Assembly (NCBI GenBank): GCA_963762255.1
Contig: CAVXKA010000001.1
Location: forward strand, 192,001-256,000
Direction: 5' to 3'
From: Candidatus Eiseniibacteriota bacterium
GTDB taxonomy: Bacteria; Eisenbacteria; RBG-16-71-46; JABDJR01
DNA length: 64,000 bases
A program made the translations under genes and the position numbers. Of this stretch, positions 3,852-40,001 are shown in pieces; the stretch's first letter is position 1; every line of letters starts with the position of its first letter. Under the pieces are notes generated by a model. It saw only the letters and a list, made by a program, of their open reading frames with translations, was not told where the DNA came from and ran no database searches.

Positions 3852-5875
3852 CCGTCGCCGACGCCGCCCGTCTCAAACCCGGCGTCACCGTCGACGATCT
3901 CCCCGAGCCGGAAGACGCGGCCGTCGGCGCTGCAGCGCTCGTTCGCGGCACCGCTCTCATCTTCTGGGATCCGGAACAGCCGGGCCGCAAGCTCGACGCC
4001 ATCGACACCGACCAGATCACCCCGGCCAAGGACTGCGTCTCGGAGAGCCTCGACGAACTCGACCGGCATTGGAAAGAAGGCGCATTCCGTCATCTCATGC
4101 CCGACTTCCGCGCCCGCGTGCATCGCGGCGAGACGTTTCTCGTGGCCGGCGACCGGTTCGCCATCGGGTCCTCGCGCGAGATGAGCCCGGCGGGATTGAA
4201 GGCCATCGCGGAAGAGGCCGGCCTCGACATGGTCATCGTATGCGGCGGCAACATGGGCGACATCTTCCGGCGCAACGCATTCAACCTGGGCCTTCACGTG
4301 GTGCAGTGTTCGGATGCCGTCGAGGACGCTCGCGATGGCGACCGCATGAGCTTCGACCCCGACACGCGCGCGATCGTCAACGAGACGCAGGGCAAGACCT
4401 ACGCGCCGCTTCCGCTCACGGAGAAGGAAGACGAGATCCGTCGCTCGGGCGGCATCTTCTCGGTGGGTCGCCGCGAGCTTCGCGAGTCCGTGACCCGCGC
4501 GCCCTCGATCGTCTGGCCGGACCCCGCGACCGCGAGCCGCCTCACCACCACCGAGCAGATCGTCTGGGCGCATCGCGTGAACAAGCAGGCGGAGGCGAGG
4601 CCGGGCGCGACTTTGCGCGTCTACGCCGACCTCCTGCCCGCCTCCGACGGGACCGCTCCCTTCGCCATCCACACCTTCAACCGCATCACCGGCGGCAGCG
4701 CGATCTATCCGCGTCAAGCGGCCATCGCCAGCGATCACTTCGTCTTCACCGGCGAGGCGGCCGACGAGAAGCAAACCGAGATCGGTCGCGCGTTCGCCGC
4801 TCGGCACGGCCTTGCCAAGCCGTTCTTCGCGGACCCCGGCGACGGCATCTTCCACTTCTATTTTCCCGAGCAAGGGCTCGTGATCCCGGGCGCGTTCATC
4901 CCCGGCGCGGACTCGCACAGCCGCGCGTACGGCGCGTACGGAGCGATGGGCTTCGGCGTGGGCTCGACCACGCTCGGCTTCGGTTGGTCGACCGGCTACG
5001 TCTACTTCACGCCGGCCAAGGCGCGACGCGTCGTCTTCACCGGGGCCTTGCAGCCGTGGGTGAGCGGCAAGGACATCGTGTTGCGGCTCCTGGCCGGCTG
5101 GGGCGCCGCGCAGGCGCAAGGGATGTCGGTGGAGTTGGTCGACCGCGACCGGCAGCTCCCCATTGCCTTCCGCAACACGATCGCCAACATGATGGCGGAG
5201 GCGGAGGCGCAGAACGGGATCTTCGCTCCCGACGAGATCACGCTTCGCTGGTATCGCGACAAGGGACTCGCCGAGTTGCCCTACCCCGCGATCGCGCCCG
5301 GCGAAGACGCGCACTACGAGATCGACGAGACGCTCGACTTGGCCGACGTCGTCCCCATGATCGCCAAGCCGTTCAGCCCCGCCAACGCGTTCCCGGCGGA
5401 AGAGGTGGCGCGCGAGCGCATCACGTTCGATCGCGCCTATATCGGCTCCTGCACGAACGGGAGCTACGACGATCTGCTCACCGCCGCGCTCGTCATACGC
5501 GCCGCGCGCGAGGCGGGCGCCGGGCGGACCGCGCGCGATCTCCTCATCTTTCCCGGCTCTGGAGGCGTGCGCCGCCGCATCGAGTCCCCCGAACCGCGCC
5601 TGGGCGGCGACCCGATCGCCGATGTCTTGCGCGCCGCGGGAGCGCAAATCCGCGACTCCTGGTGCGGCCCCTGCTTCGGGCAAGGACCGGATGCCCTGGC
5701 CCCCGGACAGCGCGCCATCACGACCTTCAACCGCAACTGGCACAACAGGATGGGCCTTGGAGGCGAGGGCTATCTGGCCAGCCCGGCGGTCGTCGCTGCC
5801 TCGGCGCTCCTGGGGTACATGGCCCCGCCATCGGAGCTGGGCCTGGCCTGGGATCCGGCGCGCTACGAGCCCTGA
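3848..5875 (+). CDS. Aconitase-family dehydratase; fused LeuD-like (N-terminal) and LeuC-like (C-terminal) domains
   Basis: [13 protein letters not shown] and [10 protein letters not shown] (small subunit/swivel); ADSHS, GSCTNG, CGPCFG, NRNW and LASP (large subunit, 4Fe-4S ligands). GTG start overlaps the ferredoxin stop (GTGA). Confidence 0.88.
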
Positions 5876-5994
5876 CGGCCCCACAAGAACCCGCACACTT
5901 CGAAGACAGCGCAACACGCGCTCATGTTGGTCCGTTTATAATCGTGCGCCTCACCCCCCGGTCCTCAAAGTCCACCATCCCACTGAGGACTGAT

Positions 5995-8683
5995 ATGTCC
6001 ATGAGCCACTTCTGCCGCCGATACGCGAGACGAGACGGATCCGGCCCCGCGCCGGTATCGCGACGCATCGCCGGCGTTCTCCCGCTCGCGTTCTTCGCGG
6101 TGACTCTCGCGACGACACGCCCCGCAGCCGCGGCGTTCCACACGTTCGAGCCGACCGGCGACGATGCGCAGTACCCGCCGACCGCGAACGGCCGCCTCAT
6201 CGGCACGCCGACGGTTCGCACCTACTCGCTTTCGCGCGGCGAGAGCATCACGGTCGACGGCAAGCTGGACGACCCTGTCTGGCTCAAGGCGGAAGGGGCG
6301 ACGGGATTCACGGTGTGGGAGCCTGATCGCGGCAAGACGCCCTCCGAGGAGACCGTCTTCAAGGTCGCTCACGACCAGGATGCGATCTACTTCGCGGTCG
6401 CCTGTCCGGAGAAGGACGCGGCGAAGATCAGCAAGAAGCTCTCCCGGCGCGACAAGTTCAGCAACTCGGATCTGGTGAGCGTCTACATCGACCCGTATCA
6501 CGACCGCAGCACCGGCTACAACTTCCGGGTGAACCCGCTGGGCGTGCAGACCGACGCCTATATGTATAACGACGGCGAGCGCGACGACGACTGGGATGCG
6601 GTGTGGGAGGGCGAGGTGACCGAGGACGCGGGCGGCTGGTACGCGGAGATCCGCATCCCGTTCTCGGCCATCCGGTACCGCCCCGGCCTCGATACCTGGG
6701 GGCTGCAGGTCTACCGCTATATGCATGGCCGCGGCGAGGACACGGCGTGGGTGACGTGGAACCGCGAGCAGAGCGGGTTCGTGAGCCGGTTCGGCACCCT
6801 CATGGGCCTGGAGGACGTCCCCCCTCCGCGCCAACTCGAGATCCTCCCCTACGCGGTGGGGCGCGCTTCCGACCCGGTCGCTCCGCGCAGCGAGGACGGC
6901 ATCGACGGACTCGGAAACTTCGGAGCGGACCTCAAGTACGGCGTCACCTCCGACCTCACCCTGAACGGTACCTTGCAGCCCGACTTCGGCCAAGTGGAGG
7001 CCGACCCGGCCGAGCTCAACCTCTCCCCCTTCGAGACCTTCTTCGAGGAGAAGCGCCCGTTCTTTATCGAAGGGAGCCGGTTCTTCCAGCAACCGGTCTT
7101 CACGATGTTCTATTCGCGGCGGATCGGGACCGGCGACGCCAACTCCCGCATCCGTTACGCGACCAAACTCACCGGCAAGACGAAGTCCGACGTTTCGGTG
7201 GCCGCGCTCGCCGCATCCACCGACGTGACCGGAGAGGGCCAGGCCCACAACTTCCTCAAGAGCGGAGATCAGACTGCGCGCTACTTCGTCACGCGCCTCG
7301 GCAAGGAGTTCGCCCAGGGGCGATATCGTTTCAACGTCATGCAAACCGCGGCGCTCAGGAGCGCCGACCGCACGACCTACGGCGACTTCGCCTCGCGCGA
7401 TGCCTATACCACCGGCCTCGATTTCGATCTCAAGTTCAAGGATCGCAAGTACCGCATGGTGGGAAACTTCGCCGGCTCGGTGGTGGATCCCCGGGCTCTC
7501 CCCGACGATCCGCGGAGCGGCTTGTCCAGATACGGCACGGGCGGCCATCTCGAGGCCCAGCGCACGGCAGGAAAGGTGCTCGTATCGGCCTGGGGGCACT
7601 GGGAGACCGACCGGCTCGATCTCAACGATCTCGGGTACCTGCAGGCCCCCGACGAGATCAACCTCGGCGGCTGGATGCAGTACCGGTACAACCCCGAAGG
7701 CAAGAACAAGCATGTCAATCAGGCCCAGCTGACCCTGAACCTGTGGAGGATCATGACTGTACGGTGCCCGCACCGGCTACGACCTCCATACCCGGGAGCC
7801 GATCTGGTCCTACGGGCGGGGGTTCTTCCAGAGTCACGGCGCCACCCTCGAGCCCTGGATCCAATTTCGAGACTACCGGGAGCTATGGGCGGGGCTCGAA
7901 TACGGCTCCGAGAACAATCAGCGTTACGAGACTCGGAGCACGGTGATGCTCCTGCCCGACGCCCACGGAAACGTCGTGGAAGCGCCCATTCCCGGAGGCG
8001 GGCCGCTCATGAAGGATCCCTTCTCGTATGGCGGCTGGGTGGGAGGCAGCAGCGATACCCGCCGGGACTTCGTGGCGCAGGCCACCGGGATCTACTTCGA
8101 GGATACGGCCAAGAACACGGTCAGCGAGCTGGAGACCTCGGTGCGCTGGAACCAGTCGAGCGCGGTGAACCACGAGCTGATCCTCAACTACGAGTACCGG
8201 CGCGACGACACGCAGCACCTGGGGAACTACGAGAACACCAACGGCGGGATCGGGGGCGTGAGCTACGTCTTCGGCGTGTTCCGCCAGCGCACCGTGGATC
8301 TGACCCTGCGCACGAGCCTCCTGTTCGACCGGGATCGGTCGCTCGAGATCTACGCTCAGCCGTTCATCACGGTGGGGAACTACACCCAGGCCAAGGAGCT
8401 GGCCGCGCCGTTCACCTACGACTTCATCCCTTACACCCGCGACGGGTTCAAGGCCTCCGACCACGACTTCAGCTACACGTCGGTCAACGTGAACGCGGTG
8501 TACCGGTGGGAGTACCGGCCGGGGAGCACGTTCTACCTGGTGTGGGCGCACAACCGATCCGACTACTCGGAGCGCGCGGCGGGGCCGCAGCACTTCAACA
8601 ACCGCCTGCGGACGGGGGCGTTCTTCGATACCGAACCGGGAAACACGATCTTGGTCAAGATCAGCTATTGGATTCCGGTCTAG
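5995..8683 (+). CDS. CBM9-like/DUF5916 outer-membrane-type protein with a +1 frameshift near 7750-7757
   Basis: ITVDGKLDDPVW, YNFRVNPLG, PDFGQVEADP and FFEEKRPFFIEG motifs in the 4069 frame from ATG 5995. The C-terminal half (YRWEYRPGSTFYLVW...KISYW) is in the 7943 frame. One extra base joins them. Confidence 0.8.
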
Positions 8684-8803
8684 GCGCGGGCTGCGGGGCG
8701 CCGTGGGCCGTGCAGTCTCGATGACACCGTGTGCTAGACTGCCGCGAGTCCGTTCTCGTGGAACCCCTCGATCCGACACCCTCATCCCGTGAGGAACTCC
8801 ACC

Positions 8804-10000
8804 ATGCCGAAGATCCGCGCGCTTCTCGCCGCCGGCCTTCTCGCGGCCATGGCGGCCTCGGCGGGGCCAGCGGCCGCGCAATCGCTGGCCGCCTACGACC
8901 AGGCCCTCGCCGACGCCAAGGCCCAGAACAAGACCGTCCTCCTCGATTTCTACACCGATTGGTGAAGCTCTTGCAAAGCATTCGCCCGTGCGGCGGACTC
9001 CGATAGCGACCTCCAGCAGAGCCTCGGCAAGTTCGTGTTCCTCACCGTCAACGCCGAGAAGGAAGACGGTCCCGAACTCTCCAAGCGGTTCTCGATCGTC
9101 GGCTACCCCACCTACGTCGTTCTCAACGGCGACGGCGCCACCCTCGACCGATGGATCGGCTACGAAAAGAAGACGTGGCTGGCCTCGGCGCAGGCGGTGC
9201 TGGCCGATCCCGTCACCTTGGACCATCGCAAGCAACGGTTCGCCAAGAGCCCCTCGGCGCCCGATGCCGCCCGCCTCGCCATGGTCTGCGATTCGCGCGG
9301 AGAGTACGGCGAATCGATCGTCCTGTACCGCGAAGCCCAGCGGTTGAACCAGGATCCGGAGAAGGACTACCTCATGAACGTCTTCGTGGCGAGCTTCTAT
9401 GCAGCTCGCAAGAAGAAGGCCGCTCAAGAGGACGTCGCCGCAGCCGCCGATGCGGTCCTCGCCTCGCCCAAGGCGAAGCCGGGGGAACTGGCGGACGTGG
9501 CCTATCTCATGGTCGTGACCGCGCGCGGCATGGAGCAGCCGGAGAAAGCGATCCCCTACCTCAAGGCCGCTGTCGAGCGCACGGAGGGAACGACCGACCC
9601 CGAAGTGCAGCGCTCGCGGGCGGACATCCTCGCCGACTACGCGCTCCTCGTGCTCAAGGACAACGACAAGGCGACCGCGTACAAGAAGGCGACCCTGCCC
9701 GAAGGGTGGATGACCGATCCCGGCAGTTTGAACGGCTACGCGTGGTGGTGCTTCGAGAACGGGATCCATCTCGACGAAGCTCAGGCGCTGGCGGAGAAGG
9801 GAGCCGAGCTGGCCAAGCCGGGGAAGGAACGCGCCATGATCCTCGACACCCTGGCCGAGATCTGCAACGCGCGCGGCAACCCCACCGAGGCGCTGAGCGC
9901 CGCCCAACGCGCGCTCGCCGAAGCCCCGGACGGCAAGCAGTATCAGGAGCAGGTTGAGCGGTTCGGCAAGCTCGCCGGCGAGAAGGGCAAAGGAAAGTAG
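8804..10000 (+). CDS. Secreted thioredoxin-fold plus TPR-like protein; probable selenoprotein (UxxC)
   Basis: ATG 8804 (upstream GAGGA) gives a signal peptide, then KTVLLDFYTDW-TGA(8963-8965)-SSCKAF, in frame with the 9035..10000 ORF (cis-Pro motif IVGYPTYVVL, helical TPR-like C-terminus). Confidence 0.85.
8981..8997 (+). promoter_or_regulatory. Putative bacterial SECIS hairpin
   Basis: TTCGCC-CGTGC-GGCGGA stem-loop whose loop starts 21 nt after the TGA and has GT at loop positions 2-3. Confidence 0.55.
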
Positions 10001-10026
10001 AACCGCCCGAAGCACGATGTCCCGCG

Positions 10027-10057
10027 GAGGCGGCTCTCAGATCCTGGGGGCCGCCTC
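10027..10057. terminator. Hairpin between convergent genes; possible bidirectional terminator
   Basis: GAGGCGGCTCTCAG-ATC-CTGGGGGCCGCCTC followed by TTCATT. Confidence 0.6.
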
Positions 10058-10062
10058 TTCAT

Positions 10063-12249
10063 TCAATCGCTCTCGTTTCGGAAGCGCTGCCGCACTTCGG
10101 GCTCGACGCGTCGCAGCACGATCGGAGCGGCGGTGACCTGCCGCCCCGACTCCAGCACGATCTCGCGGATGGCGGAATCGCCCAACTGCACGCCCTGGGG
10201 CAGGCTCCACTCCGCGATCTCCAACGTGGCCGGGCCCGCGTCGAGGCCGGTCAGCGCGAACTTCCCATCGCCGTCGGTGAACACGTCGTGGTGGCTTCCG
10301 CGCAGGCGGATGAGGATGTCGGGCACGCCGACGAAAGACCCGCTCGCGTCCCTCGCGACGACACGTCCCTCCACCCCGGCCGCGCGACGGATCGCGAAGT
10401 CGGCGACCGCGTCCTCTCCCGGACGCAGACGGAGCGGAATCCGGTCGCGGGCCGGCGCGAGGTACCGAGTGGCCAGGCGCGCCGGATCGAAGAGTACGAA
10501 GTCGAGCCCGGGCTCGGCATGCTCCAGGCGGTATGAACCGTCTCGCGCGGTGATCATCTCCTCGCCGCTCCCAAGCCGAACCGTGAGGCCGGGTATGCCC
10601 GGTTCTCCGGCGTCGCGATTGCCGTTCGCGTTGAGGTCCTCGAAGACCACACCGCGCACCGAGCCGAACTCCGGCAGACCTTCAATCGTTTCCAGGCGAC
10701 CGCCCCCGAACGAGAAGCTGCGGCTCAACCGCAGGTTCACGCGGGCTGCATCGGGGTCGCGCGCGCCCGCGCGGACGTAGGCGAAGCCCTCGATTCCGAC
10801 GGTCAGATCTCCGAAGATGCCCTGCCGCCATCCCCCGCCGATTTGCCATTGATCGCGCGCAAACTCCTCGTCGTCCGCATCCTGCCGCTCGCGGGCGAGA
10901 CTCAACCAGAGACTTCTCTCGTCGCCGGGATCCCACGCGATGCGGGACTCCAGTCGACGCTCGCGACTCGTCCAGCGGCCGTTCGGGAGCCGGCGCTCCA
11001 CGCTCGCGCCCAGGAGTTCCAGGTTCAGCGTCTCACCCAACCGCTCCGACAGGCGGGCGGTCACGCGATCCTCGTGCCAGTCGCCGGCCTCCTGCGCGGG
11101 ATCGCGGAAGAGGCCGCGCGAGTAGCCGAGGCTGCCGCCGTGGACCCGCGTGCGCCATCCGATCTCCCCTCCGCCGTTGAGGACGCCTTGATCGACCAGA
11201 AGGCTGTCCGGATCCACGGTCGAGCGCGCGCGGTACGCGGCGGTGGTTTGAACGTAGAGCGGACGAACGAGGGGCACGGTGGAGAAAGCGCGCAACGACA
11301 CGCGCTCCTCGGGTGGAAGGCCGTCCGCGCGTCGCGTCAGATCGCGCGCCCAGTCGGCCGCCGCACCCAGGTACATGGCTGGCCGCGGACGGAGACCGGT
11401 CTCCAGACGCGCGCCCCACTCGTTCTCGTGCGGGCCGCGCAGGAGTCCGAGATCGCGATACGCAGGGGCGATGCGGCGCGCATGCCCCGAGATCACCGAG
11501 TGCTCGCCGGTGCGAGTGAATCCCGCGACGACGGTCGTGCCGAGGCGCGACGACCCGTCCTCCCTCGACACGCTCAGATCGCCGAGCCACGACCACCCGC
11601 GCGCCGCGTTCGCGGCGACGAGCAGCCGGGAAACCTGAAGGCCGGCGGGGCGCTCAGGCAGTGCTTGCTGGCGGTCCCACGAGAGATCCCAGCGACGGCG
11701 TGACCCCAGACTTCCGCCCAGCCCGAGCCCGAGTACGCCGGAATCGGTGGACGTGCGGCCCAATGCGGCGCCTCCCTGCCTCTCGGTGAGCGCACCTCCC
11801 CGCACTTCGACGCGCAGATCTCCGCGCCTCAATCCCCATCCCGCTCCGCGCAGCCATACCGGGGGGTGGAACTCCGAGGCCAGGTCGCTCCCACGCTCAT
11901 TTCCCACCGCAAAGTCGCCGAGGTGAACCGCCATTCGGCCGACCGTGGTGGGGATGTCCGCGCCGGTCAGGCGGAATTCCCGGCCGCGTTCCGACACGTC
12001 CATCCACAAGGACCACGCTCCGGAGTTGGCCGGAAAGGCGACCCCGTCGAGGTGGTACACCCACTCTTCACGATGCCGTGCAGTACCGTAGGGGCCCCAT
12101 TCCGCGTGCTGCCGCTCGACCCACGCACGAAACTCGCTGCGCGGCCAGGCGGCCGCGCATGCCGAGGGAAGCGCGGCGACGAGCGCAAGTGCGGCGATGA
12201 GGAGGGAGCCCGACGCAAGGATGCGTCCGGTCCGCGGCGCGTCGGACAT
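10063..12249 (-). CDS. Usher-like outer-membrane beta-barrel with C-terminal SdrD B-like/carboxypeptidase-regulatory-like domains
   Basis: Signal peptide from ATG 12249 (overlaps the chaperone stop). Alternating beta-strand pattern, LRGAGWG motif, GSVRGVVFEDLNANGNRDAGEPGIPG (SdrD B-like) and TDGDGKFALTGL. Confidence 0.7.
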   Translation of the reverse strand: MSDAPRTGRILASGSLLIAALALVAALPSACAAAWPRSEFRAWVERQHAEWGPYGTARHREEWVYHLDGVAFPANSGAWSLWMDVSERGREFRLTGADIPTTVGRMAVHLGDFAVGNERGSDLASEFHPPVWLRGAGWGLRRGDLRVEVRGGALTERQGGAALGRTSTDSGVLGLGLGGSLGSRRRWDLSWDRQQALPERPAGLQVSRLLVAANAARGWSWLGDLSVSREDGSSRLGTTVVAGFTRTGEHSVISGHARRIAPAYRDLGLLRGPHENEWGARLETGLRPRPAMYLGAAADWARDLTRRADGLPPEERVSLRAFSTVPLVRPLYVQTTAAYRARSTVDPDSLLVDQGVLNGGGEIGWRTRVHGGSLGYSRGLFRDPAQEAGDWHEDRVTARLSERLGETLNLELLGASVERRLPNGRWTSRERRLESRIAWDPGDERSLWLSLARERQDADDEEFARDQWQIGGGWRQGIFGDLTVGIEGFAYVRAGARDPDAARVNLRLSRSFSFGGGRLETIEGLPEFGSVRGVVFEDLNANGNRDAGEPGIPGLTVRLGSGEEMITARDGSYRLEHAEPGLDFVLFDPARLATRYLAPARDRIPLRLRPGEDAVADFAIRRAAGVEGRVVARDASGSFVGVPDILIRLRGSHHDVFTDGDGKFALTGLDAGPATLEIAEWSLPQGVQLGDSAIREIVLESGRQVTAAPIVLRRVEPEVRQRFRNESD

Positions 12250-22210: not shown

Positions 22211-22315
22211 TTCGCGACATTGGGGGGCTCCTCAGATGGCCGCCGGCGTGCGATGCGCGCCGGCGGCGCGCTCCCTCCGCCATGCGCCCATCGCTCGAAA
22301 GAAGGATCGCGCGCC

Positions 22316-23527
22316 ATGAGAATCAAGAGCCGTCGATTCGGAATCCTCCTCCTCGTGATCGTCGTGGTACTCGCCGTGTCGGGAACGATCCTCGTCCGGC
22401 AGATCTCGGGGCGCGCGGACACCGCGGTCGCCTCGGCATCCGACTCGACGGATGCCGGTAAGGCATCGGGCAAGAAGAAGAAGGGCGACAAGGACAATGC
22501 GCCCAAGCCGGTTCCGGTCGAGACCGCGCTCGCGGTGGCGCGTGACATCCCCGCGTTCTTCAGCGCCACCGGATCCCTCGACGCGCGGCGTCGCATTCAG
22601 CTCGTCTCCAAGGCGCAAGGCCAGGTCGTAAGGCTCCTCGTCGAAGAGGGCGCCCGCGTTCGCGCGGGGCAGGTTCTGCTGGAGCTGGATCATCGTGAGG
22701 AAGAGCTGCTTCTCAAGGAGGCGACCGCCCGCGCGGAGACTGCCGCTAGCGGGCTCGAGCGCATTCGCGGCCTGCTCGACCGCGGCCTCGGTTCCGATCG
22801 CGATTTCGAGCAGGCCAGAACCGAGGCCGAGGTCTCGGCGGCGCAACGCGACCTGGCGCAGGTGCGTCTCGACGACAAGATCGTGCGCGCCCCGTTCAGC
22901 GGCCTCGTGACCGATCGCCTGGTCGAGCTGGGGCAGACCACCAATCTCGGGCAGCCGCTGGTGGGCCTCGCCGAGGCCCCGCCGATGGAGATCAAGCTCT
23001 TCCTTCCCGAGCAGGTCGTGAAGGATCTGCATGCCGACCAGCCGGTCGAGATCCGCCCCGACGTGGATGCCGGCGTCGCGCTGACCGGCATCGTGGAGCG
23101 CATCGCGCCCACGGTCGATCCCTCCACCTCCACCGTGAAGGTCACGCTGCGCGTGGACGACATCTCCGCCGTCGCGCGGGTGGGGAGCTTCGTGCGGGCG
23201 CGCATCACCACCGACACGCGGCAGGGAGCGGTGGCGGTGCCCAAGCGTGCGCTGGTCCCCGAAGCGGGAGCGACCTACTTGTATCTGGCCGAGGCCGACT
23301 CGGTGCGCAAGATCGCGGTCACCACCGGCTACGCGGACGACGACTTCGTGGAAGTGGTCACGGGCCTCATGCTGGGCTCCCGCATCGTGACGGTGGGACA
23401 GGGCGGACTGCGCAACGGCAGCAAGATTCGCGATCTCACGTTGGAGAACGCGGCCAAGTCCGAGCCGAAATCCGGCGGGACCGAGCCCGCGGCGCCTGAA
23501 GTCGCAGCGGCCGCCGAGAACGACTGA
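22316..23527 (+). CDS. RND efflux membrane fusion protein
   Basis: N-terminal TM; lipoyl-like halves (GQVVRLLVEEGARVRAGQVL / IVRAPFSG), helical hairpin and VPKRAL. Confidence 0.92.
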   Translation: MRIKSRRFGILLLVIVVVLAVSGTILVRQISGRADTAVASASDSTDAGKASGKKKKGDKDNAPKPVPVETALAVARDIPAFFSATGSLDARRRIQLVSKAQGQVVRLLVEEGARVRAGQVLLELDHREEELLLKEATARAETAASGLERIRGLLDRGLGSDRDFEQARTEAEVSAAQRDLAQVRLDDKIVRAPFSGLVTDRLVELGQTTNLGQPLVGLAEAPPMEIKLFLPEQVVKDLHADQPVEIRPDVDAGVALTGIVERIAPTVDPSTSTVKVTLRVDDISAVARVGSFVRARITTDTRQGAVAVPKRALVPEAGATYLYLAEADSVRKIAVTTGYADDDFVEVVTGLMLGSRIVTVGQGGLRNGSKIRDLTLENAAKSEPKSGGTEPAAPEVAAAAEND

Positions 23528-23528
23528 G

Positions 23529-26500
23529 ATGCGCGCCCTCATCCGCTACGCCGTCGAGCACCGCGTGACCATGCTCATGCTCACGGCGGCCGCAGTCGTG
23601 TTCGGCGTGGTCTCGCTGGGGCGGCTGCCGCTGCAGCTTCTGCCCGATCTCAGCTACCCGACGCTCACCCTGCAAACCGAATACGCGGACTCGGCGCCCA
23701 ACGAGGTGGAGAGCCTCATCACGAGACCGTTGGAAGAGGCGGTGGGAGTCGTGCCGGGGCTGCGGCGCCTGAGTTCGACGAGCGAGGCGGGCGTGAGCAC
23801 TATCCGCCTTGAGTTCGGCTGGGACACCGACATGGACTTCGCCGCCCTCGACGTGAGGGAGAAGGTCGATCTGATCACGCTCCCCGACGACGCGAAGGCC
23901 CCCGTGCTTCTTCGCTACGACCCCGCCCAGGATCCGGTCATCCGGCTCGGCGTGTCGGGCGGCGCCAATGCCGTGCAGCTCCGTTACCTCGCCGATCAGG
24001 TGGTCAAGAAGGAGCTCGAGGCGATGCAAGGCATTGCCGCCGCCAAGGTCGTGGGCGGGCTCACGGAAGAAGTGCACGTCGACATCGACGAGCAGCGGCT
24101 GGCCGCCCTCGGGGTTCCCATCACCGGCATCACCCAGGTGGTGGGTGAAGAGAACGTGAACGCGGCGGGCGGGCGCCTGCGCGACCGCGACGCCGAGTAC
24201 CTCGTGCGTACGCTGAACCAGTTCGAGGGTCCGGTCGATGTCGGCGAGACCATCGTCCAGCGGGACGGCGACCGCGTCGTCAAGCTCGCCGACGTCGCTT
24301 CGGTGACGCGCGCGCACAAGGAGCGCGAGATCGTCAGCCGCATCGACGGCGAGCAGGCGGTGGAGGTGGGCGTCTACAAGGAGGGGGACGCCAACATCGT
24401 CGACGTGGCGCGCCGCGTGCGGGCCCGGGTACCGGCCTTGCAGAAGATGCTCCCGGAGGGAGTGAAGCTCCAGGTGCTCTCGGACCAGTCCACGTTCATC
24501 CAGAGCGCCGTCAATCAGGTGCGCTCGAACGCGCTCATGGGCGGGCTCCTGGCCGTGCTCGTTCTCTTCGTATTCCTGCGCGACGTGCGCGCCACCGCGA
24601 TCATCGCGCTCGCCATCCCCGCCTCCATCGTCACCACCTTCGTGCTCATGTTCCGCCAGGGGATCACGCTGAACGTGATGAGCCTCGGCGGGCTCGCGCT
24701 CGGCGTGGGGATGCTGGTCGACAACTCGATCGTTGTCCTCGAGAGCATCGTGCGACACCGTCGGGGTTCCGGCCTCTCGCTGGCCGACGCGGTGGTGAAC
24801 GGCACCGAGGAGGTCGGGACCGCGATCACCGCCTCGACATTGACCACGATCGCGGTGTTTCTTCCCATCCTGTTCGTGGAGGGGGTGGCACGGCAGATCT
24901 TCAGGGACCAGGCGCTCACCGTGACCTACTCGCTCATGGTGAGCCTCGTCGTGGCCCTCACGCTCACGCCGATGCTGGCGGCGCTGGGGTCGCGACAGCG
25001 CAAAGCGGACGTGCCGGCGAGGGATAGCGCGCGCGGCTTCGAGGATGAGGGGCGGATCATGGAGTCGGTGCGCCGCCGCTACGCGCGCTTGCTCTCCGGG
25101 GCGCTCGGCCATCGCGCGTGGGTGATGGGCGCGTTTCTCGCGCTCTTTGTCGGGTCGTTTATCGGCGCCCGGTTCATCGGCACCGATCTCATTCCGTCCT
25201 TCGCCCAGGGGGAGCTGCGCTTCGATCTCGAACTGCCCGAGGGAACGCCGATCGAGCACACCGATCGCGTCATCCACGATCTCGAGCGCGAACTCCTCGA
25301 CCTGCCGGGTGTGAGCGCGGTCTTCAGCAACGTCGGCGTCGCCGCGGAGGGCGGCGGCAATGTGCGCAGCAAGAAGGAGAACCACGCCGAGCTGAACGTG
25401 CGGTTGGCAGCGGGGTCGGGGCGCGCAGAGGAGGCGGAGGTCCTGGAGGGCATCCGCCGAAGCCTCGCCGAGGTCCCGCGCCTGACCGGCACGCTTCAGA
25501 ACCAGCTCGCCTTTACGTTCAAGACGCCGGTCGAGGTGGAGATCTACGGCTACGATCTACGGGAGCTGAGCGACGTTTCCGACCACGTGGTGGAGACCCT
25601 GCGCGGCGTGTCCGGCCTCGAGGACGTCACCGCGAGCCTGGAGCCGGGAAGCCCGGAGGTGGAGATTCGCTTCGACCGCGACAAGCTCAAGCTCGCCGGG
25701 TTGGGACTTCGCGAGGCCAGCGAATCGCTCCGCACCAAGATCCTGGGAAAGGTGGCGACCGACTACAAGGACCGCGACCGGCAGATCGACGTACTGGTGC
25801 GCAGCGCCGACGCGCAGGAACTCTCCTTTGCCGACCTCAACACCATGGTCGTCGGCTATCGGGCGGCGATGCCGATCCAGCTTGCCTCGGTGGCCGACGT
25901 GGCGGTGGCGCGCGGCCCGGCCCGCATCCAGCGCATCGCCCAGTCACGCGCGGCGGTGGTGAGCGCGAATCTCGTGGGCCGCGATCTCGGCAGCGCATCG
26001 CGCGACATCGAGGCCGCCCTCGCCCACGTGTCACTGCCGCCCGATGTAACCCTTCAGATCGCGGGACAGAACGAGGAGATGCGTTCGAGCATGCGGAGCC
26101 TCGTCTTCGCCGCCGTGCTGGCGATCTTCCTGGTCTATCTCGTCATGGCGAGCCAGTTCGAGTCGATCAAGAACCCCTTCCTCATCCTCTTCACCATGCC
26201 GATGGGATTGATCGGCGTGGTGGCCGCGCTCGTCCTGACCCGCACCCCCGTGAGCGTGGTCGTGATGATCGGGGCGATCATGCTGGCCGGGATCGTGGTC
26301 AACAACGGCATCGTGCTCATCGACCTGGTCGGCCGGCTTCGCCGCCAGGGGGCGACGGTGCACGAGTCGATTGTGGAAGCGGCGCAGGTCCGGCTTCGTC
26401 CCATCCTCATGACGACCACGACCACGGTGCTGGGTCTCCTCCCGCTTGCGATGGGTCGCGGCGAGGGCGCGGAGATCATGACCCCGCTCGCGATCACCGT

Positions 26501-26600
26501 CATCGGCGGCCTCACCGTCTCGACGGTGCTGACCCTGATCGTGCTGCCCGTGCTCTACAGCCTCGTCAACCGCGATCCTCGCCCGGCGCGAGCGGTATAG
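23529..26600 (+). CDS. RND transporter permease subunit 1 (AcrB/MdtB-like)
   Basis: 1023 aa; GMLVDNSIVVLE, GIVVNNGIVL and RLRPILMTT. Confidence 0.95.
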   Translation: MRALIRYAVEHRVTMLMLTAAAVVFGVVSLGRLPLQLLPDLSYPTLTLQTEYADSAPNEVESLITRPLEEAVGVVPGLRRLSSTSEAGVSTIRLEFGWDTDMDFAALDVREKVDLITLPDDAKAPVLLRYDPAQDPVIRLGVSGGANAVQLRYLADQVVKKELEAMQGIAAAKVVGGLTEEVHVDIDEQRLAALGVPITGITQVVGEENVNAAGGRLRDRDAEYLVRTLNQFEGPVDVGETIVQRDGDRVVKLADVASVTRAHKEREIVSRIDGEQAVEVGVYKEGDANIVDVARRVRARVPALQKMLPEGVKLQVLSDQSTFIQSAVNQVRSNALMGGLLAVLVLFVFLRDVRATAIIALAIPASIVTTFVLMFRQGITLNVMSLGGLALGVGMLVDNSIVVLESIVRHRRGSGLSLADAVVNGTEEVGTAITASTLTTIAVFLPILFVEGVARQIFRDQALTVTYSLMVSLVVALTLTPMLAALGSRQRKADVPARDSARGFEDEGRIMESVRRRYARLLSGALGHRAWVMGAFLALFVGSFIGARFIGTDLIPSFAQGELRFDLELPEGTPIEHTDRVIHDLERELLDLPGVSAVFSNVGVAAEGGGNVRSKKENHAELNVRLAAGSGRAEEAEVLEGIRRSLAEVPRLTGTLQNQLAFTFKTPVEVEIYGYDLRELSDVSDHVVETLRGVSGLEDVTASLEPGSPEVEIRFDRDKLKLAGLGLREASESLRTKILGKVATDYKDRDRQIDVLVRSADAQELSFADLNTMVVGYRAAMPIQLASVADVAVARGPARIQRIAQSRAAVVSANLVGRDLGSASRDIEAALAHVSLPPDVTLQIAGQNEEMRSSMRSLVFAAVLAIFLVYLVMASQFESIKNPFLILFTMPMGLIGVVAALVLTRTPVSVVVMIGAIMLAGIVVNNGIVLIDLVGRLRRQGATVHESIVEAAQVRLRPILMTTTTTVLGLLPLAMGRGEGAEIMTPLAITVIGGLTVSTVLTLIVLPVLYSLVNRDPRPARAV

Positions 26601-26612
26601 GAACCGGCGGTC

Positions 26613-29600
26613 ATGTGGATCACCCGGCTCGCCGTCCGCCGCCCGGTGTCGGTCATCGTGGTGCTGGTCTCGCTGCTCGTCCTCGGCGCGATCAGCGCAT
26701 TCAAGCTCCCCCTCAACTTCCTTCCCAACGAGGAAATGCCCTTCATCGGGGTGTTCGTCCCCTACCCGAACGGCGTCCCCGGGCAGGTGGAGCGCGAGAT
26801 CGCGCGCCCGATCGAAGAGGTCTTGAGCACGCTCGGCGGGGTCAAGCAGATCTTCAGCCAGAGCGATCCAGCTCAGTGCTTCGTAGGGGTCGAGTTCGAC
26901 TGGGGTCGCGACGTCAACGTGCTGCGGCTGGAGGTGAAGGAGAAGCTCGACCAGATCCGCCCGGAGCTTCCCGCCGACGTTCGCGACATCCTTCTCTTCA
27001 CGTTCAATACCAACGACATTCCGATCGTGGAAGGACGCATCAGCGCCCATGACCGCGATCTCTCCGGGAGCTACGATCTCATCGAGCACCGCGTCATCAA
27101 CCGTCTCCAGCGCGTGCCGGGCGTGGGGCGCGTTCAGGTGGAAGGGGTGGAGCCCGCCAACGTCTCGGTGTACTTGAAGCTCGACAAGATCAAGGAACAT
27201 CGGGTCGACGTGGGGCGCCTTTTCAGCGAGCTCTCCTCCAGCAACTTCAACCTCACCGTAGGCCAGGTCACGCGCGAGGGGCTGCGCTACAACCTGCGCT
27301 CGGTGGGGTCACTGGCGTCCGTGGCGGAGATCGAGAACCTGCCCCTGGACGATCGCGGTCTCCGGCTCAAGGACGTGGCCGACGTCGTGGTCGCGGAGCC
27401 CGAACTCACCTACGGGCGACTCCTCAACCGCGAGCCGGCGGTGGCGTTCTGGGTGCAGAAGGCCAGCGGCGCCAACACCGTCGAGGTCGTGAAATCGATC
27501 AAGACCGAGCTCGCGCGCATCAACAGCGATCCGGCGCTCAAGGGCATCGAAGTCTTGCTGTTCTTCGATCAGGGCGAGCAGATCACCAACAGCCTCAATG
27601 GGCTTCTCTCGTCGGGAGCGATCGGCGCGGGGCTGGCGGTGGCGGTCTTGTACTTCTTCCTCCTGCGCATAGGCACCACCCTCATCGTCTCGCTGGCCAT
27701 CCCGATCTCCATCGTCGGCACCGCCTGCTATCTCTACGTGACCCATCGCAGCCTCAACATCCTCTCCATGATGGGGCTGATGCTCGGGGTCGGGATGCTG
27801 ATCGACAACGCGGTGGTGGTGCTGGAGTCGATCTACCGGCGCTTGGGCTTGGGCGAGGACCCCGAGACGGCAACCCTGAAGGGCACCGAAGAGGTCGGCC
27901 GCGCCGTCGTGTCGGCCACGCTGACTTCCGTGATCGTCTTCGCGCCGATTCTCTTCGGCGGGAAGAGCGAGATCACGACCTGGCTCAAGGAGGTCGGGAT
28001 CACGATCACGGTGACGTTGCTGCTTTCGCTCCTGGTGAGCCTCACCCTGATCCCGCTGCTGACGTTCTCGCATCCTCAAGGGCGGTCGGAGGTCGGTCGC
28101 CCTCAACCCTCTGGTGGAACGCTGGGGGAATTCCTACGAACGGGTACTGCGCTGGACAGCCGTCCGCCACCCATGGATCACCGGCGTACCCATCGCGCTC
28201 GGCGTGGTGCTCCTCACCGTGGGCCTGGCGGCGGTGACCAAGTTCAAGCCGGACATCCTCGGCGACGAAGGGGTTCGCCAGGACTATCTGCAGGTCACCT
28301 ACGACTTCCAGGACAACGTCGACTATCGGCGCGCGCACGAGTACGTGAACGACCTCGAAGCCGCGATCTGGGCGAGGCGCGACTCGCTCGACATCAAGCA
28401 CCTGTATTCCTTCTACCAGGACAACTTCGCGATGACCCGCGTGTTCTACCAGGACGCCGCCTTCAAGGGGAGCGACCTGGCGGAGCTTCGCAAGAAGCTG
28501 CGAGACGGGCTTCCCACCCTGGCCGGTGTGGAGTTGCGCTTCGGCGACGACGAGGGGCAGCAGAGCGGAGCCAAGCAGTTCAGCGTGACCTTGTCGGGGG
28601 AGGATAGCGAGGAGCTGGCGGTGATGTCCGCCGAGGTCAAGCGCCGGCTGGTGCTCCTGCCGAGCGTGGCCGACGTGAGCACCGACCTCGAGCGCGGGGC
28701 CGAGGAAATTCAGGTGCGAGTGGATCCGGAGAAGGCGAGGCGGCTCGGTGTGTCGCCCGGCGAGGTGGCCGACATCATGGCGGTGACCTTCCGAGGCGTG
28801 CAGCTACCGAGAGTCCACGCCGACAACCGCGAGATCGATCTCTGGGTGTCGCTGCGACCGGAGGATCGCCAGACGCTCGAGAGCCTCAAGTCCCTCACCG
28901 TGGGGCTGCACAACGGCCGCGAGATCACGCTCGACCAGGTCGCCGAGACCGTGATGGGGAGGGGCGCCAACCGCATCACCCGCCAGGACCAGAAGACGGC
29001 GGTGACGGTGCGCGGGAGCCTCGAAGGAGAGGACTCCGACCAGGCGCTCAAGGACGTGCGCGGGGTGATGGAGTCCGTGCAATTCCCGCCTGGGTACGGG
29101 TGGAATTTCGGCACGGAGATCCAGCAGGCGCAGGAGCAGCAGACCGAGATGCTGGTGAACGTGCTCCTCGCGCTCTTGTGCGTGTACATGGTGATGGCGA
29201 GCCTCTTCGAGTCGCTCATTCACCCGGCGGTGGTGATGTTCTGCATCCCGTTCGCCGGGCTCGGCGTGATCTGGCTCATGGTCGCCACCGGCGCGCCGTT
29301 CAACCTCATGGCCATGATCGGCATGGTCATCCTGGTCGGGGTGGTGGTGAACAACGGCATTGTGCTGGTCGCGCACATCAACCAGCGCCGCAAGGAAGGG
29401 TTGTCGCTGGACGAGGCGATCGTGGCCGGTGGCCGCGAGCGGTTCCGCCCGATCATGATGACGGCGACCACCACGATCCTGGGACTGATCCCGCTCGCGC
29501 TGGGCAACGGCCACGTGGGCGATCTCAAGCTCTATCCGATGGCGCTGGCGCTGATCGGCGGCATGACGAGCTCGACCGCGCTGACGTTGATCTTGCTGCC

Positions 29601-29766
29601 GGTCTACTACCAACTCACCGAGCGCCTGCGAGTGCGGTGGGCATGGGTCTTCGCGTGGTTGGGACGGTCGCTGCGGCGGTTCGGCCGGTGGATGGCGTCG
29701 CGCCTGCCGTTCGGGCGGCGGCGTAGGAGCTCCACCGGACCGACGGTCGCGGAGCCCGCCGCATGA
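26613..29766 (+). CDS. RND transporter permease subunit 2, with a +1 frameshift at ~28065
   Basis: N-half (GMLIDNAVVVLE) in the 26613 frame and C-half (GVVVNNGIVL, RFRPIMMT) in the 28114 frame. Removing one T in ACGTTCTCGC restores T-S-R-I-L-K. Confidence 0.88.
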
Positions 29767-33584: not shown

Positions 33585-33869
33585 GTGGTCAACGCCGTCG
33601 TCCTCTTGAGCCTCGAGCGCGATCGCATCAACACCGTAGCCGAGCAACTGGCTGGCATGGAGGGGATCACCGAGGTCTACTCCGTGGCCGGGCAATTCGA
33701 CCTCGTGGCCATGGCGCGAGCGCGCGACAACGAAGCCCTGGCCGATCTCATCACCGCCCGCCTGCTCAAGGTTCCAGGCATCCTCCGCTCGGAGACCCTG
33801 ATCGCGTTTCGCGTCTACTCCAAGTACGACCTCGAGCACATGTTCTCCATCGGGATGGAGGACGCGTGA
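33585..33869 (+). CDS. Stand-alone Lrp/AsnC ligand-binding (RAM) domain protein
   Basis: EVYSVAGQFDLVA...GILRSETLI; no N-terminal HTH. Confidence 0.85.
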   Translation: MVNAVVLLSLERDRINTVAEQLAGMEGITEVYSVAGQFDLVAMARARDNEALADLITARLLKVPGILRSETLIAFRVYSKYDLEHMFSIGMEDA

Positions 33870-34684
33870 CGCGAGCCGCGATGGCGGTCGCGGCGATGAT
33901 CTGGGTGCTGGTCGGGGGATGCGGCGGCGGCGAGGCGGACCGCGCTGGAGCCGGTCACGCGCGGGCGACGCTTGTCGCGGAGCGCGACGCTTTCACGCCC
34001 GGAGACACGCTGATCCTCGGTGTGTCCTTCACTATCGAGAAGGATTGGCATCTTTACGGCAATACCGCGAACGATACCGGCTTCCCGATCCACGTCACCC
34101 CCAAGTTGCCGCCCGGGTACGTCGCGCTCGATCTTCTCTGGCCCGCACCGAGTCGCCATCTCTCTCCCGGCGACATCCTCGATCACGTCTATGAGGAGCG
34201 CGTCACCCTGCTCCTTCCCGTGGTGGTCCCCGCCGATGCCCGCATCGGCGACCGCGTGGACCTGAAGGCCCACATCGACTGGCTGGTCTGCCGCGATCTG
34301 TGCCTCCCGGAGAGCGCGGACGTGTCCGTGCGCCTGCCCGTGAGGGCGAACGGGGCACCGAACAAGGCCGTGGCTGCCCTATTCGCAGAAACCCGGGCTC
34401 GCCTTCCCGTCCGAGATTCAACGGAAGCCCGCGCCACACGAGAGGGTAAGATCGTCGTCCTCGAGGCTCCGGGCGCACAGGCCCTGGTCTTCTACCCCGG
34501 TCCCGGGTCCGCGCGGTTGGCCAACCCGATTCGCGACGCCGCAGGGACCGGCGCCCGACTCACGCTCACTCTCGCCGAGGCCGACACCGGCGGGGCGCCC
34601 GTCGAGGGCGTGCTCGAAATCACCCGCCCCGGCGGGACATCGTCGTTCATCACGGTTCGTCTCGGGTCCGCCAAGGGTTCCTGA
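33866..34684 (+). CDS. DsbD N-terminal (alpha) domain lipoprotein
   Basis: Lipobox VGGC; IEKDWHLY, WPAP and WLVCRDLCLP. Confidence 0.8.
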   Translation: MTRAAMAVAAMIWVLVGGCGGGEADRAGAGHARATLVAERDAFTPGDTLILGVSFTIEKDWHLYGNTANDTGFPIHVTPKLPPGYVALDLLWPAPSRHLSPGDILDHVYEERVTLLLPVVVPADARIGDRVDLKAHIDWLVCRDLCLPESADVSVRLPVRANGAPNKAVAALFAETRARLPVRDSTEARATREGKIVVLEAPGAQALVFYPGPGSARLANPIRDAAGTGARLTLTLAEADTGGAPVEGVLEITRPGGTSSFITVRLGSAKGS

Positions 34685-34716: not shown

Positions 34717-35379
34717 ATGCGCACTCGAAACGTTTATGCCCTCGCGCTCGCCGCGTTCGCCGTTCTCTTCGGCGCGCCGCCTCTGACCGCGGCCGCCGCG
34801 GACGCCGCCGGCACACCGGAGAAGCCGGCCGAGATGACGCCGGCCGCCCTCGGCGAGAAGGCCCCTGACTTCACCCTCACCGACACGGACGGAAAGACCC
34901 ACAAGCTCAGCGAGTACACCGCGCAGGGTAAGATCGTCGTATTGGAGTGGTTCAACCCGGAGTGTCCGTTCGTGAAGAAGCACCACCAACTCACGCACTC
35001 CATGAACGATACCTATGCATTTGCCAAGGGAGCCGGAGTGGTGTGGCTCGCCATCAACTCGGGCGCGGCGGGCAAGCAGGGCGCCGGTCTCGAGAGGAAC
35101 GCCGCCGCTCGCAAGGACTACGGCATGGAGTACCCGCTGCTCCTCGACGAGAGCGGCGCCGTCGGGAAGCTCTACGGCGCCAAGACGACGCCCCACATGT
35201 TTGTGATCGATGAGAAGGGTACGCTCATCTACCGGGGCGGAATCGACGACGACGCCAGCCCCAAGACGCTCGGCAAGACCAACTACGTCCGCACGTGCCT
35301 GGAGGCCCACTCGGCGAAGAAACCGGTGACGGCGAACGACACGAAGCCCTACGGGTGCAGCGTCAAATACGCCTCATAG
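34717..35379 (+). CDS. Secreted AhpC/TSA-type redoxin
   Basis: KAPDFTL, EWFNPECPFV, AKTTPHMFVI, YRGGIDD and GCSVKY. Confidence 0.9.
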   Translation: MRTRNVYALALAAFAVLFGAPPLTAAAADAAGTPEKPAEMTPAALGEKAPDFTLTDTDGKTHKLSEYTAQGKIVVLEWFNPECPFVKKHHQLTHSMNDTYAFAKGAGVVWLAINSGAAGKQGAGLERNAAARKDYGMEYPLLLDESGAVGKLYGAKTTPHMFVIDEKGTLIYRGGIDDDASPKTLGKTNYVRTCLEAHSAKKPVTANDTKPYGCSVKYAS

Positions 35380-39818: not shown

Positions 39819-40001
39819 GGGCGGCTCCGTTTGCTTGGATGGTGCATGCGAGGCCTGGGAGTATAGCGATTCACACCGGCCCGGCGCGGACTTGCCCAAA
39901 CGCCCTACCGCGCTTAGACTTGCCCGGTTGATCCATCCCGGTCGCCCCCATGATACCGGGCGACCTTGCTTCGCAACCAATTGTCCGAAAAGGTCTTATC
40001 C

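Follow-up and report, generated by a model that had tools for sequence, protein, structure and literature searches.

A predicted selenocysteine codon in a thioredoxin-TPR gene of Candidatus Eiseniibacteriota and its mostly selenocysteine-containing relatives

We analysed a 64-kb stretch of DNA (hereafter the window) of Candidatus Eiseniibacteriota, from assembly GCA_963762255.1 (contig CAVXKA010000001.1, positions 192,001-256,000 of the forward strand). Its positions 8804-10003 (+) are best explained as one gene for a 398-residue extracytoplasmic selenoprotein, in which selenocysteine (Sec) is inserted at codon 54, a UGA, through a selenocysteine insertion sequence (SECIS) hairpin. We give this reading a probability of about 0.85. 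UxxC thioredoxin-fold proteins, where U stands for Sec, are a main class of bacterial selenoproteins, and site-specific recoding of UGA at a catalytic cysteine position is the signature of selenocysteine. The evidence comes from the reading frame, from the aligned codon in related loci, from a conserved RNA structure and from the predicted protein, which joins a thioredoxin (Trx) domain to an arm of tetratricopeptide repeats (TPR). The coordinates of all features are given in Table 1.

A preliminary description of this DNA had started the gene at ATG 8804, placed a TGA at codon 54 in the context DFYTDW-U-SSC and followed the frame, open to 10000, for 398 amino acids. Translation gave exactly this: when the TGA is read through, the frame runs from ATG 8804-8806 to the stop TAG 10001-10003, and codon 54 stands between D-F-Y-T-D-W and S-S-C. 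The same description had remarked that the listing of open reading frames (ORFs) begins at 9035 and so loses the signal peptide and the active site. The ORFs under genetic code table 11 agree, as they retain of this frame only one of 58 amino acids (GTG 8789..8965) and one of 321 amino acids (GTG 9035 to 10000). The in-frame GTG at 8789-8791, five codons 5' of the ATG, is the first start listed for the 58-residue ORF. We favour ATG 8804 because a Shine-Dalgarno-like GAGGA falls in the interval between the two codons, with a spacing that is proper for the ATG. Nothing comparable is found 5' of GTG 9035 (upstream letters gcagagcctcggcaagttc), where there is no ribosome-binding site. A scan of positions 8500-10300 for promoter and terminator consensus sequences returned 0 sites and no sigma-70 promoter.

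The frame looks coding on both sides of the TGA. The 344 codons 3' of it have a G+C content at third positions (GC3) of 0.87, in a gene of 67% GC. Eleven TGAs in the window have stop-free flanks of 50 codons on both sides with GC3 of at least 0.78, and TGA 8963-8965 alone among them has a plausible protein on either side; the other 10 lie in antisense frames rich in Ser, Arg and Pro. Could TGA be a sense codon throughout this genome, as in tables 4 or 25? The open frame itself, and nothing else, speaks for such a reassigned code. The 37 Pfam-supported ORFs of the window end at TGA (19), TAG (16) or TAA (2); since TGA ends 19 of the 37, the code is not reassigned and this alternative is already refuted. 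It would also leave it unexplained that only one of the 11 candidate in-frame TGAs has a coding look on both sides, and that the aligned residue of the relatives is Cys, not Trp or Gly. We regard its probability as negligible.

We took the DNA of 79 related loci from one-genome-per-species bacterial assemblies, retrieving them by patterns on the TPR-domain motifs around W314-W315-C316 and D348-T349, and located the aligned codon in each. The preliminary description had proposed alternation of Cys and TGA among homologues as a check, and this alternation is what the codon-54 column displays: TGA in 55 loci, TGC or TGT in 18, and neither in six. Of these six, three are W-S forms that are redox-dead and one is an SxxC form; another is a broken gene, and the last is a locus cut by a contig end. 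The loci carry the phylum labels Eiseniibacteriota, Krumholzibacteriota, Zixiibacteriota, Ignavibacteriota, Calditrichota, Fibrobacterota, Gemmatimonadota and Acidobacteriota. Across the relatives, the peptide 5' of the TGA (...kPlLvDFYTDW) and the xxCKxF 3' of it are conserved in one frame, and C57 is invariant in all 54 Sec forms and all 18 Cys forms that were aligned. Given that TGA is present in the relatives and is also an ordinary stop in the window, site-specific recoding at the catalytic Cys position is what remains. The comparison shows that UGA-54 is a sense codon and that it stands first in the UxxC redox motif of a thioredoxin.

Two simpler accounts of the TGA have to be weighed against these data. 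In the first it is a true stop, and the locus holds a gene for a 53-residue leader peptide followed by a separate 321-residue TPR protein from GTG 9035. This is how table 11 and the databases have it (entry P0001 and 32 other truncated family entries), and TGA is the commonest stop of the window. Yet a true stop would split one thioredoxin fold: the Pfam thioredoxin matches cover residues 29-127, spanning the TGA, and the domain is modelled as one unit with a predicted local distance difference test score (pLDDT) of 95-98. Moreover, 18 relatives have Cys and an unbroken frame at this codon, the GTG lacks a ribosome-binding site, and the starts of the truncated entries vary, from just past the motif to about 50 residues further, as arbitrary first-start calling predicts. 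The covariation of the hairpin and its codon bias, described below, would be left unexplained. We consider a true stop highly improbable. The second account puts the TGA down to an error of sequencing or assembly, or else to a recent nonsense mutation by which a Cys-type gene became a pseudogene. At least three other genes of the window are split between frames (the DUF5916, AcrB-family and pyruvate dehydrogenase E1 genes), as one would expect of assembly indels or pseudogenes, but the damage there consists of frame shifts rather than substitutions. This TGA is shared by 55 of the 79 independently assembled genomes, from at least eight phyla, and the five nearest relatives of the window gene all carry it. 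The 344 downstream codons keep their GC3 of 0.87 together with all the invariant residues of the family. An error or a pseudogene is hardly credible in the face of this.

The small hairpin noticed earlier at a SECIS-compatible distance, whose loop contains GT, was found as a 17-nt stem-loop, conserved and covarying in Sec forms only. It begins 15 nt after the UGA, with its apical loop 21 nt after, and its RNA also codes for F60-A61-R62-A63-A64-D65. The 60 nt from the TGA were aligned without gaps, and the window and the 55 Sec loci gave 54 distinct rows. The six stem pairs were formed in 99.7% of the 324 cells. Two-sided changes occurred at three of the six pairs (20 cells), from C-G to U-A at two pairs and from G-C to A-U at the third, and in 500 shuffles neither this pairing nor this covariation was reached once. 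As a control, the 3' arm was slid by 1-3 columns, which left 35-58% pairing. The same columns were 52.8% paired in the 18 Cys forms, where 426 of 500 shuffles did as well. When no structure was imposed, RNAalifold returned the same stem with one extra pair that the window sequence lacks.

The codons of the loop point in the same direction. The loop Arg codon is CGT in 47 of the 55 Sec genes, CGG in eight and CGC in none, whereas the Arg codons elsewhere in the same genes are CGT in 8%, CGG in 29% and CGC in 44% of cases (nominal Fisher p 1.6e-38, a value that ignores the kinship of these related sequences). Because of this usage, the constraint must act on the RNA. The encoded residues follow suit: Ala61 is fixed in 51 of 54 Sec forms against 2 of 18 Cys forms, and Arg62 in 53 of 54 against 4 of 18. 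Taken as comparative sequence evidence, these tests show a stem-loop that is under RNA-level selection only in UGA-bearing genes. One Cys form (CGYC, L017:2717-2776) retains the hairpin sequence TTT GCC CGT GAG GCA AA, and the gene of its sister locus (L019:857-916) is a Sec form (USYC). Because the hairpin is kept and the sister is a Sec form, L017 looks like a recent Sec-to-Cys replacement whose RNA element is not yet lost.

The bacterial SECIS (bSECIS) model, as it is summarised in a figure legend (PMC13188914 Fig. 2 legend), has a loop of 3-9 nt, a stem of 4-16 bp, a distance of 16-37 nt from the UGA, a G at loop position 1 or 2 with G or U after it, and a minimum free energy of -7.5 kcal/mol or lower. 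Set against the geometry in that legend, the hairpin has a loop of 5 nt (C-G-U-G-C, with G at position 2, then U), a stem of 6 bp and a spacing of 21 nt, all within the bounds of the model.

Several observations weigh against our reading of the gene. The first concern the hairpin: it is small, and alone it folds at -7.4 kcal/mol, just short of the threshold of -7.5 quoted in the legend (-8.8 when folded from the UGA). Single-sequence folding is no better than that of shuffled sequences, with z = +1.0 for 8963-9030 and further values of +0.72 and, for the 23-nt hairpin, -0.88; 33 of 200 shuffles fold as well as this 23-nt hairpin. Such folding is uninformative because the gene is GC-rich, and with single-sequence energy at chance level the reality of the hairpin rests on the comparative tests. 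The second concern the machinery. No selA, selB, selD or tRNA-Sec was found in the 64-kb window by Pfam on its 55 ORFs, by Rfam or by ARAGORN; Rfam at gathering thresholds and ARAGORN, both run on the whole window, gave no match and no tRNA. Neither did a tRNA scan of 60 of the 79 loci (all but L061-L079) give a tRNA-Sec, nor did we find a sel gene among the 12 recurrent flank families, each searched with Pfam through one representative. The third concern function. The gene has no conserved neighbour, the most frequent family in the flanks being found in 9 of 80 loci, which leaves no pointer to a substrate or reductant; and the role that we propose below for the TPR domain is one predicted from its fold.

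These points bear most directly on a further alternative, namely that the UGA is read through as something other than Sec, either by hairpin-stimulated near-cognate suppression (Cys or Trp) or by another recoding that does without SelB. The failure to find Sec machinery in the window or the scanned loci would suit it, as would the size of the hairpin, given that the classical SECIS elements of the Escherichia coli fdhF type are longer. However, the codon stands where CxxC has its first, catalytic Cys, and the only residue with which it alternates is Cys (or Ser, in a redox-dead subclade); the geometry and the G[U/G] loop fit the consensus that the legend ascribes to known selenoprotein genes. 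We know of no SelB-independent programmed UGA read-through element of such form. Non-Sec read-through is in our view very unlikely, and we retain selenocysteine as the reading of codon 54.

The structure predicted by AlphaFold2 for the read-through protein, with the family alignment, is confident (pLDDT 93.2, predicted template modelling score 0.86). Residues 1-26 are disordered in it, residues 27-134 form a thioredoxin fold, and residues 139-396 form an all-helical domain. This is the architecture that the preliminary description had anticipated, an exported protein with a UxxC thioredoxin fold and a TPR arm, and each of its three parts found support.

The N-terminus has the three regions of a secretory (Sec-type) signal peptide: MPKIR as n-region, ALLAAGLLAAMAA as h-region, and SAGPAAA, followed by QS, as AxA-type region. 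The model gives residues 1-26 a pLDDT below 50 and begins its first helix at residue 25. The maximal hydropathy over 10 residues is 2.39, with two K/R before the segment and no D/E inside it. The N-terminus has a hydrophobic segment in every assessable Sec-form locus (48 of 48), and the same holds for all 19 full-length homologues from the database. The count of 48 leaves aside L027 and L058, cut by contig ends, and five loci that were not scored (L007, L010, L012, L032 and L069), whose N-termini resemble by eye the scored ones. From these regions, and with a cleavage site placed by the -3/-1 rule rather than by a dedicated predictor, we infer that the protein is exported and cut after about Ala25. 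In six relatives, mostly of Acidobacteriota (L041, L043, L045, L054, L073 and L050), the signal peptide ends in a lipobox-like L-A-G-C or G-A-C-G, which suggests that these members could be membrane-anchored lipoprotein versions.

The thioredoxin domain was matched by the Pfam profiles PF13899 Thioredoxin_7 (1.4e-15, 57.6 bits against a cutoff of 27, residues 29-108), PF00085 Thioredoxin (3.4e-11, 43.5 bits, cutoff 23.5) and PF13098 Thioredoxin_2 (41.6 bits, cutoff 27). Sec-54 directly precedes helix 55-66 of the model, and P102, at the thioredoxin cis-Pro position, is probably in cis conformation. The protein thus has the marks of the Thioredoxin superfamily, i.e., a profile score above cutoff, a CxxC-type motif at the first active-site helix and a conserved Pro loop.

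The helical domain comprises 14 helices according to the DSSP assignment of the model (H139-148 to H378-396). Foldseek found it similar to eight-repeat CTPR proteins (E 2e-6), with a template modelling score (TM) of 0.57-0.60 on the target, and the Pfam TPR matches within it are several but weak. The thioredoxin domain is predicted to pack rigidly on this superhelix of about eight repeats. Two motifs of the TPR domain are nearly invariant in the family: W314 and W315 are kept in 76 of 76 aligned members, C316 and E318 in 73 each, D348 and T349 in 75, E352 in 74 and C354 in 63. N310 is also among the invariant or near-invariant residues. They are kept in Sec, Cys and redox-dead Ser forms alike. 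The TPR domain therefore carries a separate conserved site, independent of the redox centre. The fold suggests that this arm may bind protein.

Table 1. Features of the predicted selenoprotein gene and of its product, in window coordinates (position 1 is the first nucleotide of the 64-kb window).
Feature	Position	Strand	Evidence
Predicted selenoprotein gene, 398 codons and TAG stop, TGA-54 read as Sec	8804..10003	+	translation, Pfam Trx and TPR, AlphaFold
Shine-Dalgarno-like GAGGA, 8 nt 5' of ATG 8804	8791..8795	+	read from sequence
Predicted Sec-type signal peptide, residues 1-25, cleavage between A-A-A and Q-S	8804..8878	+	disorder, hydropathy, relatives
Thioredoxin-fold domain, residues 27-134, DsbD-gamma-like	8882..9205	+	Pfam, Foldseek, phmmer
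Predicted Sec codon UGA, codon 54	8963..8965	+	aligns with TGA in 55/79 and TGC/TGT in 18/79 related loci
Predicted redox motif U54-S-S-C57	8963..8974	+	translation
Candidate SECIS hairpin UUCGCC-CGUGC-GGCGGA (stem 8981-8986/8992-8997, loop 8987-8991)	8981..8997	+	covariation, RNAalifold, codon bias, bSECIS constraints
False table-11 start GTG, codon 78, within the Trx domain	9035..9037	+	ORF listing
P102, the invariant Pro in loop G-Y-P-T (thioredoxin cis-Pro position)	9107..9109	+	76/76 aligned members
TPR-like all-helical superhelix, residues 139-396	9218..9991	+	DSSP of model, Foldseek, weak Pfam TPR
Invariant W314-W315-C316-F-E318 motif in the TPR domain	9743..9757	+	family alignment
Invariant I-L-D348-T349-L-A-E352-I-C354 motif in the TPR domain	9839..9865	+	family alignment

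Most members of this family are stored in databases without their active site. A protein database search gave 61 matches, of which 52 are family members: 19 have 387-407 amino acids and 33 have 259-341. The long entries have CxxC at the aligned site in 18 of 19 cases, and all 33 short entries begin after the site. For example, entry P0001 (321 amino acids, 100% identical) begins at GTG 9035. A profile search of 1.84 billion cluster representatives retrieved 336 at E <= 1e-30. Among the best 150 of these, 88 have at most 345 amino acids and match from residues 1-8, as truncated calls do, 61 have at least 370, and one lies between. The preliminary description had suspected that standard pipelines mis-annotate the gene, and the truncated calls (33 of 52 family entries, 88 of the best 150 cluster representatives) are in line with this. 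The Joint Genome Institute (JGI) names family entries 'tetratricopeptide (TPR) repeat protein', and labels one relative 'thioredoxin-like negative regulator of GroEL'. A search of the ESM Atlas with a natural Cys-form relative returned only clusters automatically named 'thioredoxin family protein'.

We built a maximum-likelihood tree of 76 rows, i.e., without L027, L030, L052 and L058, after removal of the motif columns. The 54 Sec forms occur throughout the tree, with the 18 Cys forms scattered over it. Ten changes suffice to place the three states on this tree, against a mean of 20.1 when they are shuffled, and well-supported branches require the Cys label to change at least five times. A subclade of 11 consists of seven Cys forms and all four Ser forms. 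The window gene belongs to an all-Sec clade of six with Eiseniibacteriota (branch support of 99 by SH-aLRT, the Shimodaira-Hasegawa-like approximate likelihood ratio test). In four cases (L015/L034, L038/L048, L060/L049 and L040/L072) a single assembly encodes a Sec form and, on other contigs or at distant positions, a paralogue of Cys or Ser form as well. Therefore, both forms coexist in one organism and do not replace each other. In a subclade with four loci (L029, L074, L076 and L072) and protein P0088, the redox motif is lost (W-S-x-x-S/A) or reduced to SxxC, while all the TPR invariants are kept. These redox-dead paralogues are reminiscent of the SxxC forms of CnoX, a protein that we compare below. 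Their conserved TPR site would fit a binding or holdase role of the TPR domain, as in the CnoX family.

These data allow us to propose how the gene would work. By analogy with established bacterial Sec insertion, the hairpin would act as a SECIS bound by SelB-GTP-Sec-tRNA(Sec), and SelB would deliver selenocysteine to the ribosome at the UGA in place of release factor 2. The nascent chain would be exported through the secretory (Sec) translocon and cleaved near Ala25. The groove of the TPR domain, with its invariant cluster N310/W314/W315/E318/D348/T349/E352, could then hold a peptide or protein client while U54 attacks a disulfide (or a sulfenic acid) of that client. The resulting selenenylsulfide would be resolved by C57, and the oxidised U54-C57 pair re-reduced by an electron supply of the DsbD/CcdA type. 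Its most likely role is thiol-disulfide exchange with specific clients, in the periplasm or the cell envelope, and judging from the fold we would give this about an even chance.

A more inclusive proposal, which we put forward only tentatively, is that the gene represents an undescribed, mostly-Sec extracytoplasmic family of 'seleno-chaperedoxins', in which a DsbD-gamma-like UxxC domain is fused to a TPR superhelix that binds clients. Sec would be ancestral in this family, the SECIS very compact, and decay from Sec to Cys and from Cys to Ser would have occurred repeatedly. It would be spread over candidate phyla related to Fibrobacterota, Chlorobiota and Bacteroidota (Eiseniibacteriota, Krumholzibacteriota, Zixiibacteriota, Ignavibacteriota, Calditrichota and Gemmatimonadota) and over Acidobacteriota. 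If so, the 17-nt SECIS within the codons for F-A-R-A-A would count as one of the most compact that occur naturally in bacteria, and as an unusually clean case of RNA structure dictating protein sequence.

We take this to be a real selenoprotein gene that has been systematically mis-annotated: most members are stored as truncated 'TPR repeat proteins' that lack the signal peptide and the catalytic site. This can be corrected by a selenoprotein 'exception' model, as NCBI already applies to other families. For selenium biology, the gene adds a mostly-Sec (55 vs 18) extracytoplasmic family in poorly studied and mostly uncultured phyla, and the family implies a functional Sec machinery in them. The hairpin of 6 bp and 5 nt, together with the negative control of the Cys forms and the L017 convert, provides a compact natural test set for minimal SECIS recognition. 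The known principles of Sec decoding are unchanged by this finding.

The surroundings of the gene vary among the loci. The recurrent flank families are functionally unrelated (amidohydrolase, sigma factor, patatin and phosphodiesterase). A 469-residue Thioredoxin_7/Thioredoxin_2 protein (L016:4089-5495, +), a second and different protein with a Thioredoxin_7 domain, adjoins the family gene in four loci. About 25 kb downstream of the window gene, a protein with a DsbD_N domain (33866-34684) is followed by a TlpA-like AhpC/TSA-Redoxin protein (34717-35379, +). This further thiol-redox pair outside the cytoplasm could belong to the same envelope redox network and be a possible electron supply, and nothing links it to the selenoprotein gene. 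A weak SepSecS match (2.9e-7) on a pyridoxal-phosphate-dependent decarboxylase (38388-39977) was rejected as fold-type similarity, given that the protein's own family scores 1e-96.

Three genes of the window are split. The gene upstream of the selenoprotein gene (CBM9 and DUF5916, 6253-8683, +) is divided between two frames, with DUF5916 positions 1-301 in the frame of ORF 4069..8724 and positions 357-563 in ORF 7943..8683; it is the product of an assembly indel or a pseudogene. An AcrB gene of the resistance-nodulation-division type (26613-29766, +) is broken up into two ORFs that overlap and differ in frame (positions 2-485 of the ACR_tran profile in 26613-28604 and 666-1019 in 28114-29763), directly 3' of an intact AcrB gene (23529-26600) and an HlyD-type adaptor gene (22220-23527). 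Finally, pyruvate dehydrogenase E1 (39966-42692, +) appears split into a Transketolase_N-like part (39966-41072) and a part with PDH_E1_M and the C-terminal region of transketolase (41748-42689, +), upstream of E2 (42710-44113) and E3 (44153-45565). The three split genes suggest indel errors in the assembly; TGA-54 is by contrast of the substitution type and common to the relatives.

How does this gene compare with known systems? A 2026 catalogue lists 119 prokaryotic selenoprotein families or subfamilies in its Table 1, including generic Trx, thiol:disulfide interchange (PF13098), DsbA-like, DsbG-like and Trx7/PDZ (CxxU) proteins (PMC13188914). None of its 119 rows is a TPR-domain family, and 'TPR', 'tetratricopeptide' and PF13899 are absent from its text (PMC13188914). 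No selenoprotein model of NCBIfam release 20 reaches its cutoff on our protein, the best partial match being TsoB with 42 bits against 805. Among the papers that our literature searches listed there was no description of a Trx-TPR selenoprotein, and the searches on these phyla gave no statement on Sec use. Like the known Trx-fold selenoproteins, the family has Sec for the N-terminal Cys of CxxC, Cys homologues, and a putative bSECIS directly downstream in the coding region. Unlike the catalogued Trx selenoproteins, it has a TPR domain and more Sec than Cys forms (55 vs 18). It shares a PF13098 domain with UxxC with the 'thiol:disulfide interchange' selenoproteins (representative WP_011366075.1), a family compared here by its table entry, so that the two may overlap. 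Among our 61 database matches there was no protein named for the organism or family of WP_011366075.1.

The closest likeness of the thioredoxin domain is to the gamma domain of DsbD, a periplasmic CxxC domain that carries reductant. It is the best structural match (Foldseek 1VRS_D, TM 0.71 on the target, root mean square deviation 2.3 A, 31% identity), and it was also found by sequence, with NF001419 (1.1e-17, profile positions 459-557) and, in phmmer, with DsbD gamma chains of the PDB (3.5e-11 to 1.2e-9). Yet the protein lacks DsbD_N and the membrane domain (PF02683) and scores 63.9 bits with NF001419 against a cutoff of 330; compared with DsbD, it has a TPR domain instead of these parts and Sec instead of Cys. 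CnoX (YbbN; 3QOU of E. coli and 3QDN of Salmonella) is alone among solved structures in having an N-terminal Trx domain followed by TPR, and was matched by Foldseek with E-values of 8.8e-6 and 1.0e-5. Its family includes SxxC and redox-dead forms besides CxxC, as ours does, and no Sec form of CnoX appeared in the papers listed. The global fit to CnoX is poor (TM 0.19-0.30, root mean square deviation 21 A), and there was no HMMER-level match, since YbbN appeared neither in the profile search nor among the best 60 of 157 PDB sequences. The TPR domain of our protein has about 260 residues. Furthermore, CnoX is described in abstracts as a cytoplasmic protein that works with GroEL, whereas the protein studied here has a signal peptide. 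The protein is hence neither a DsbD nor an orthologue of CnoX. Its gene would work like those of the known UxxC Trx-fold selenoproteins and, with known families compared as they are listed, represents a new family among them or, at the least, an architecture that is new.

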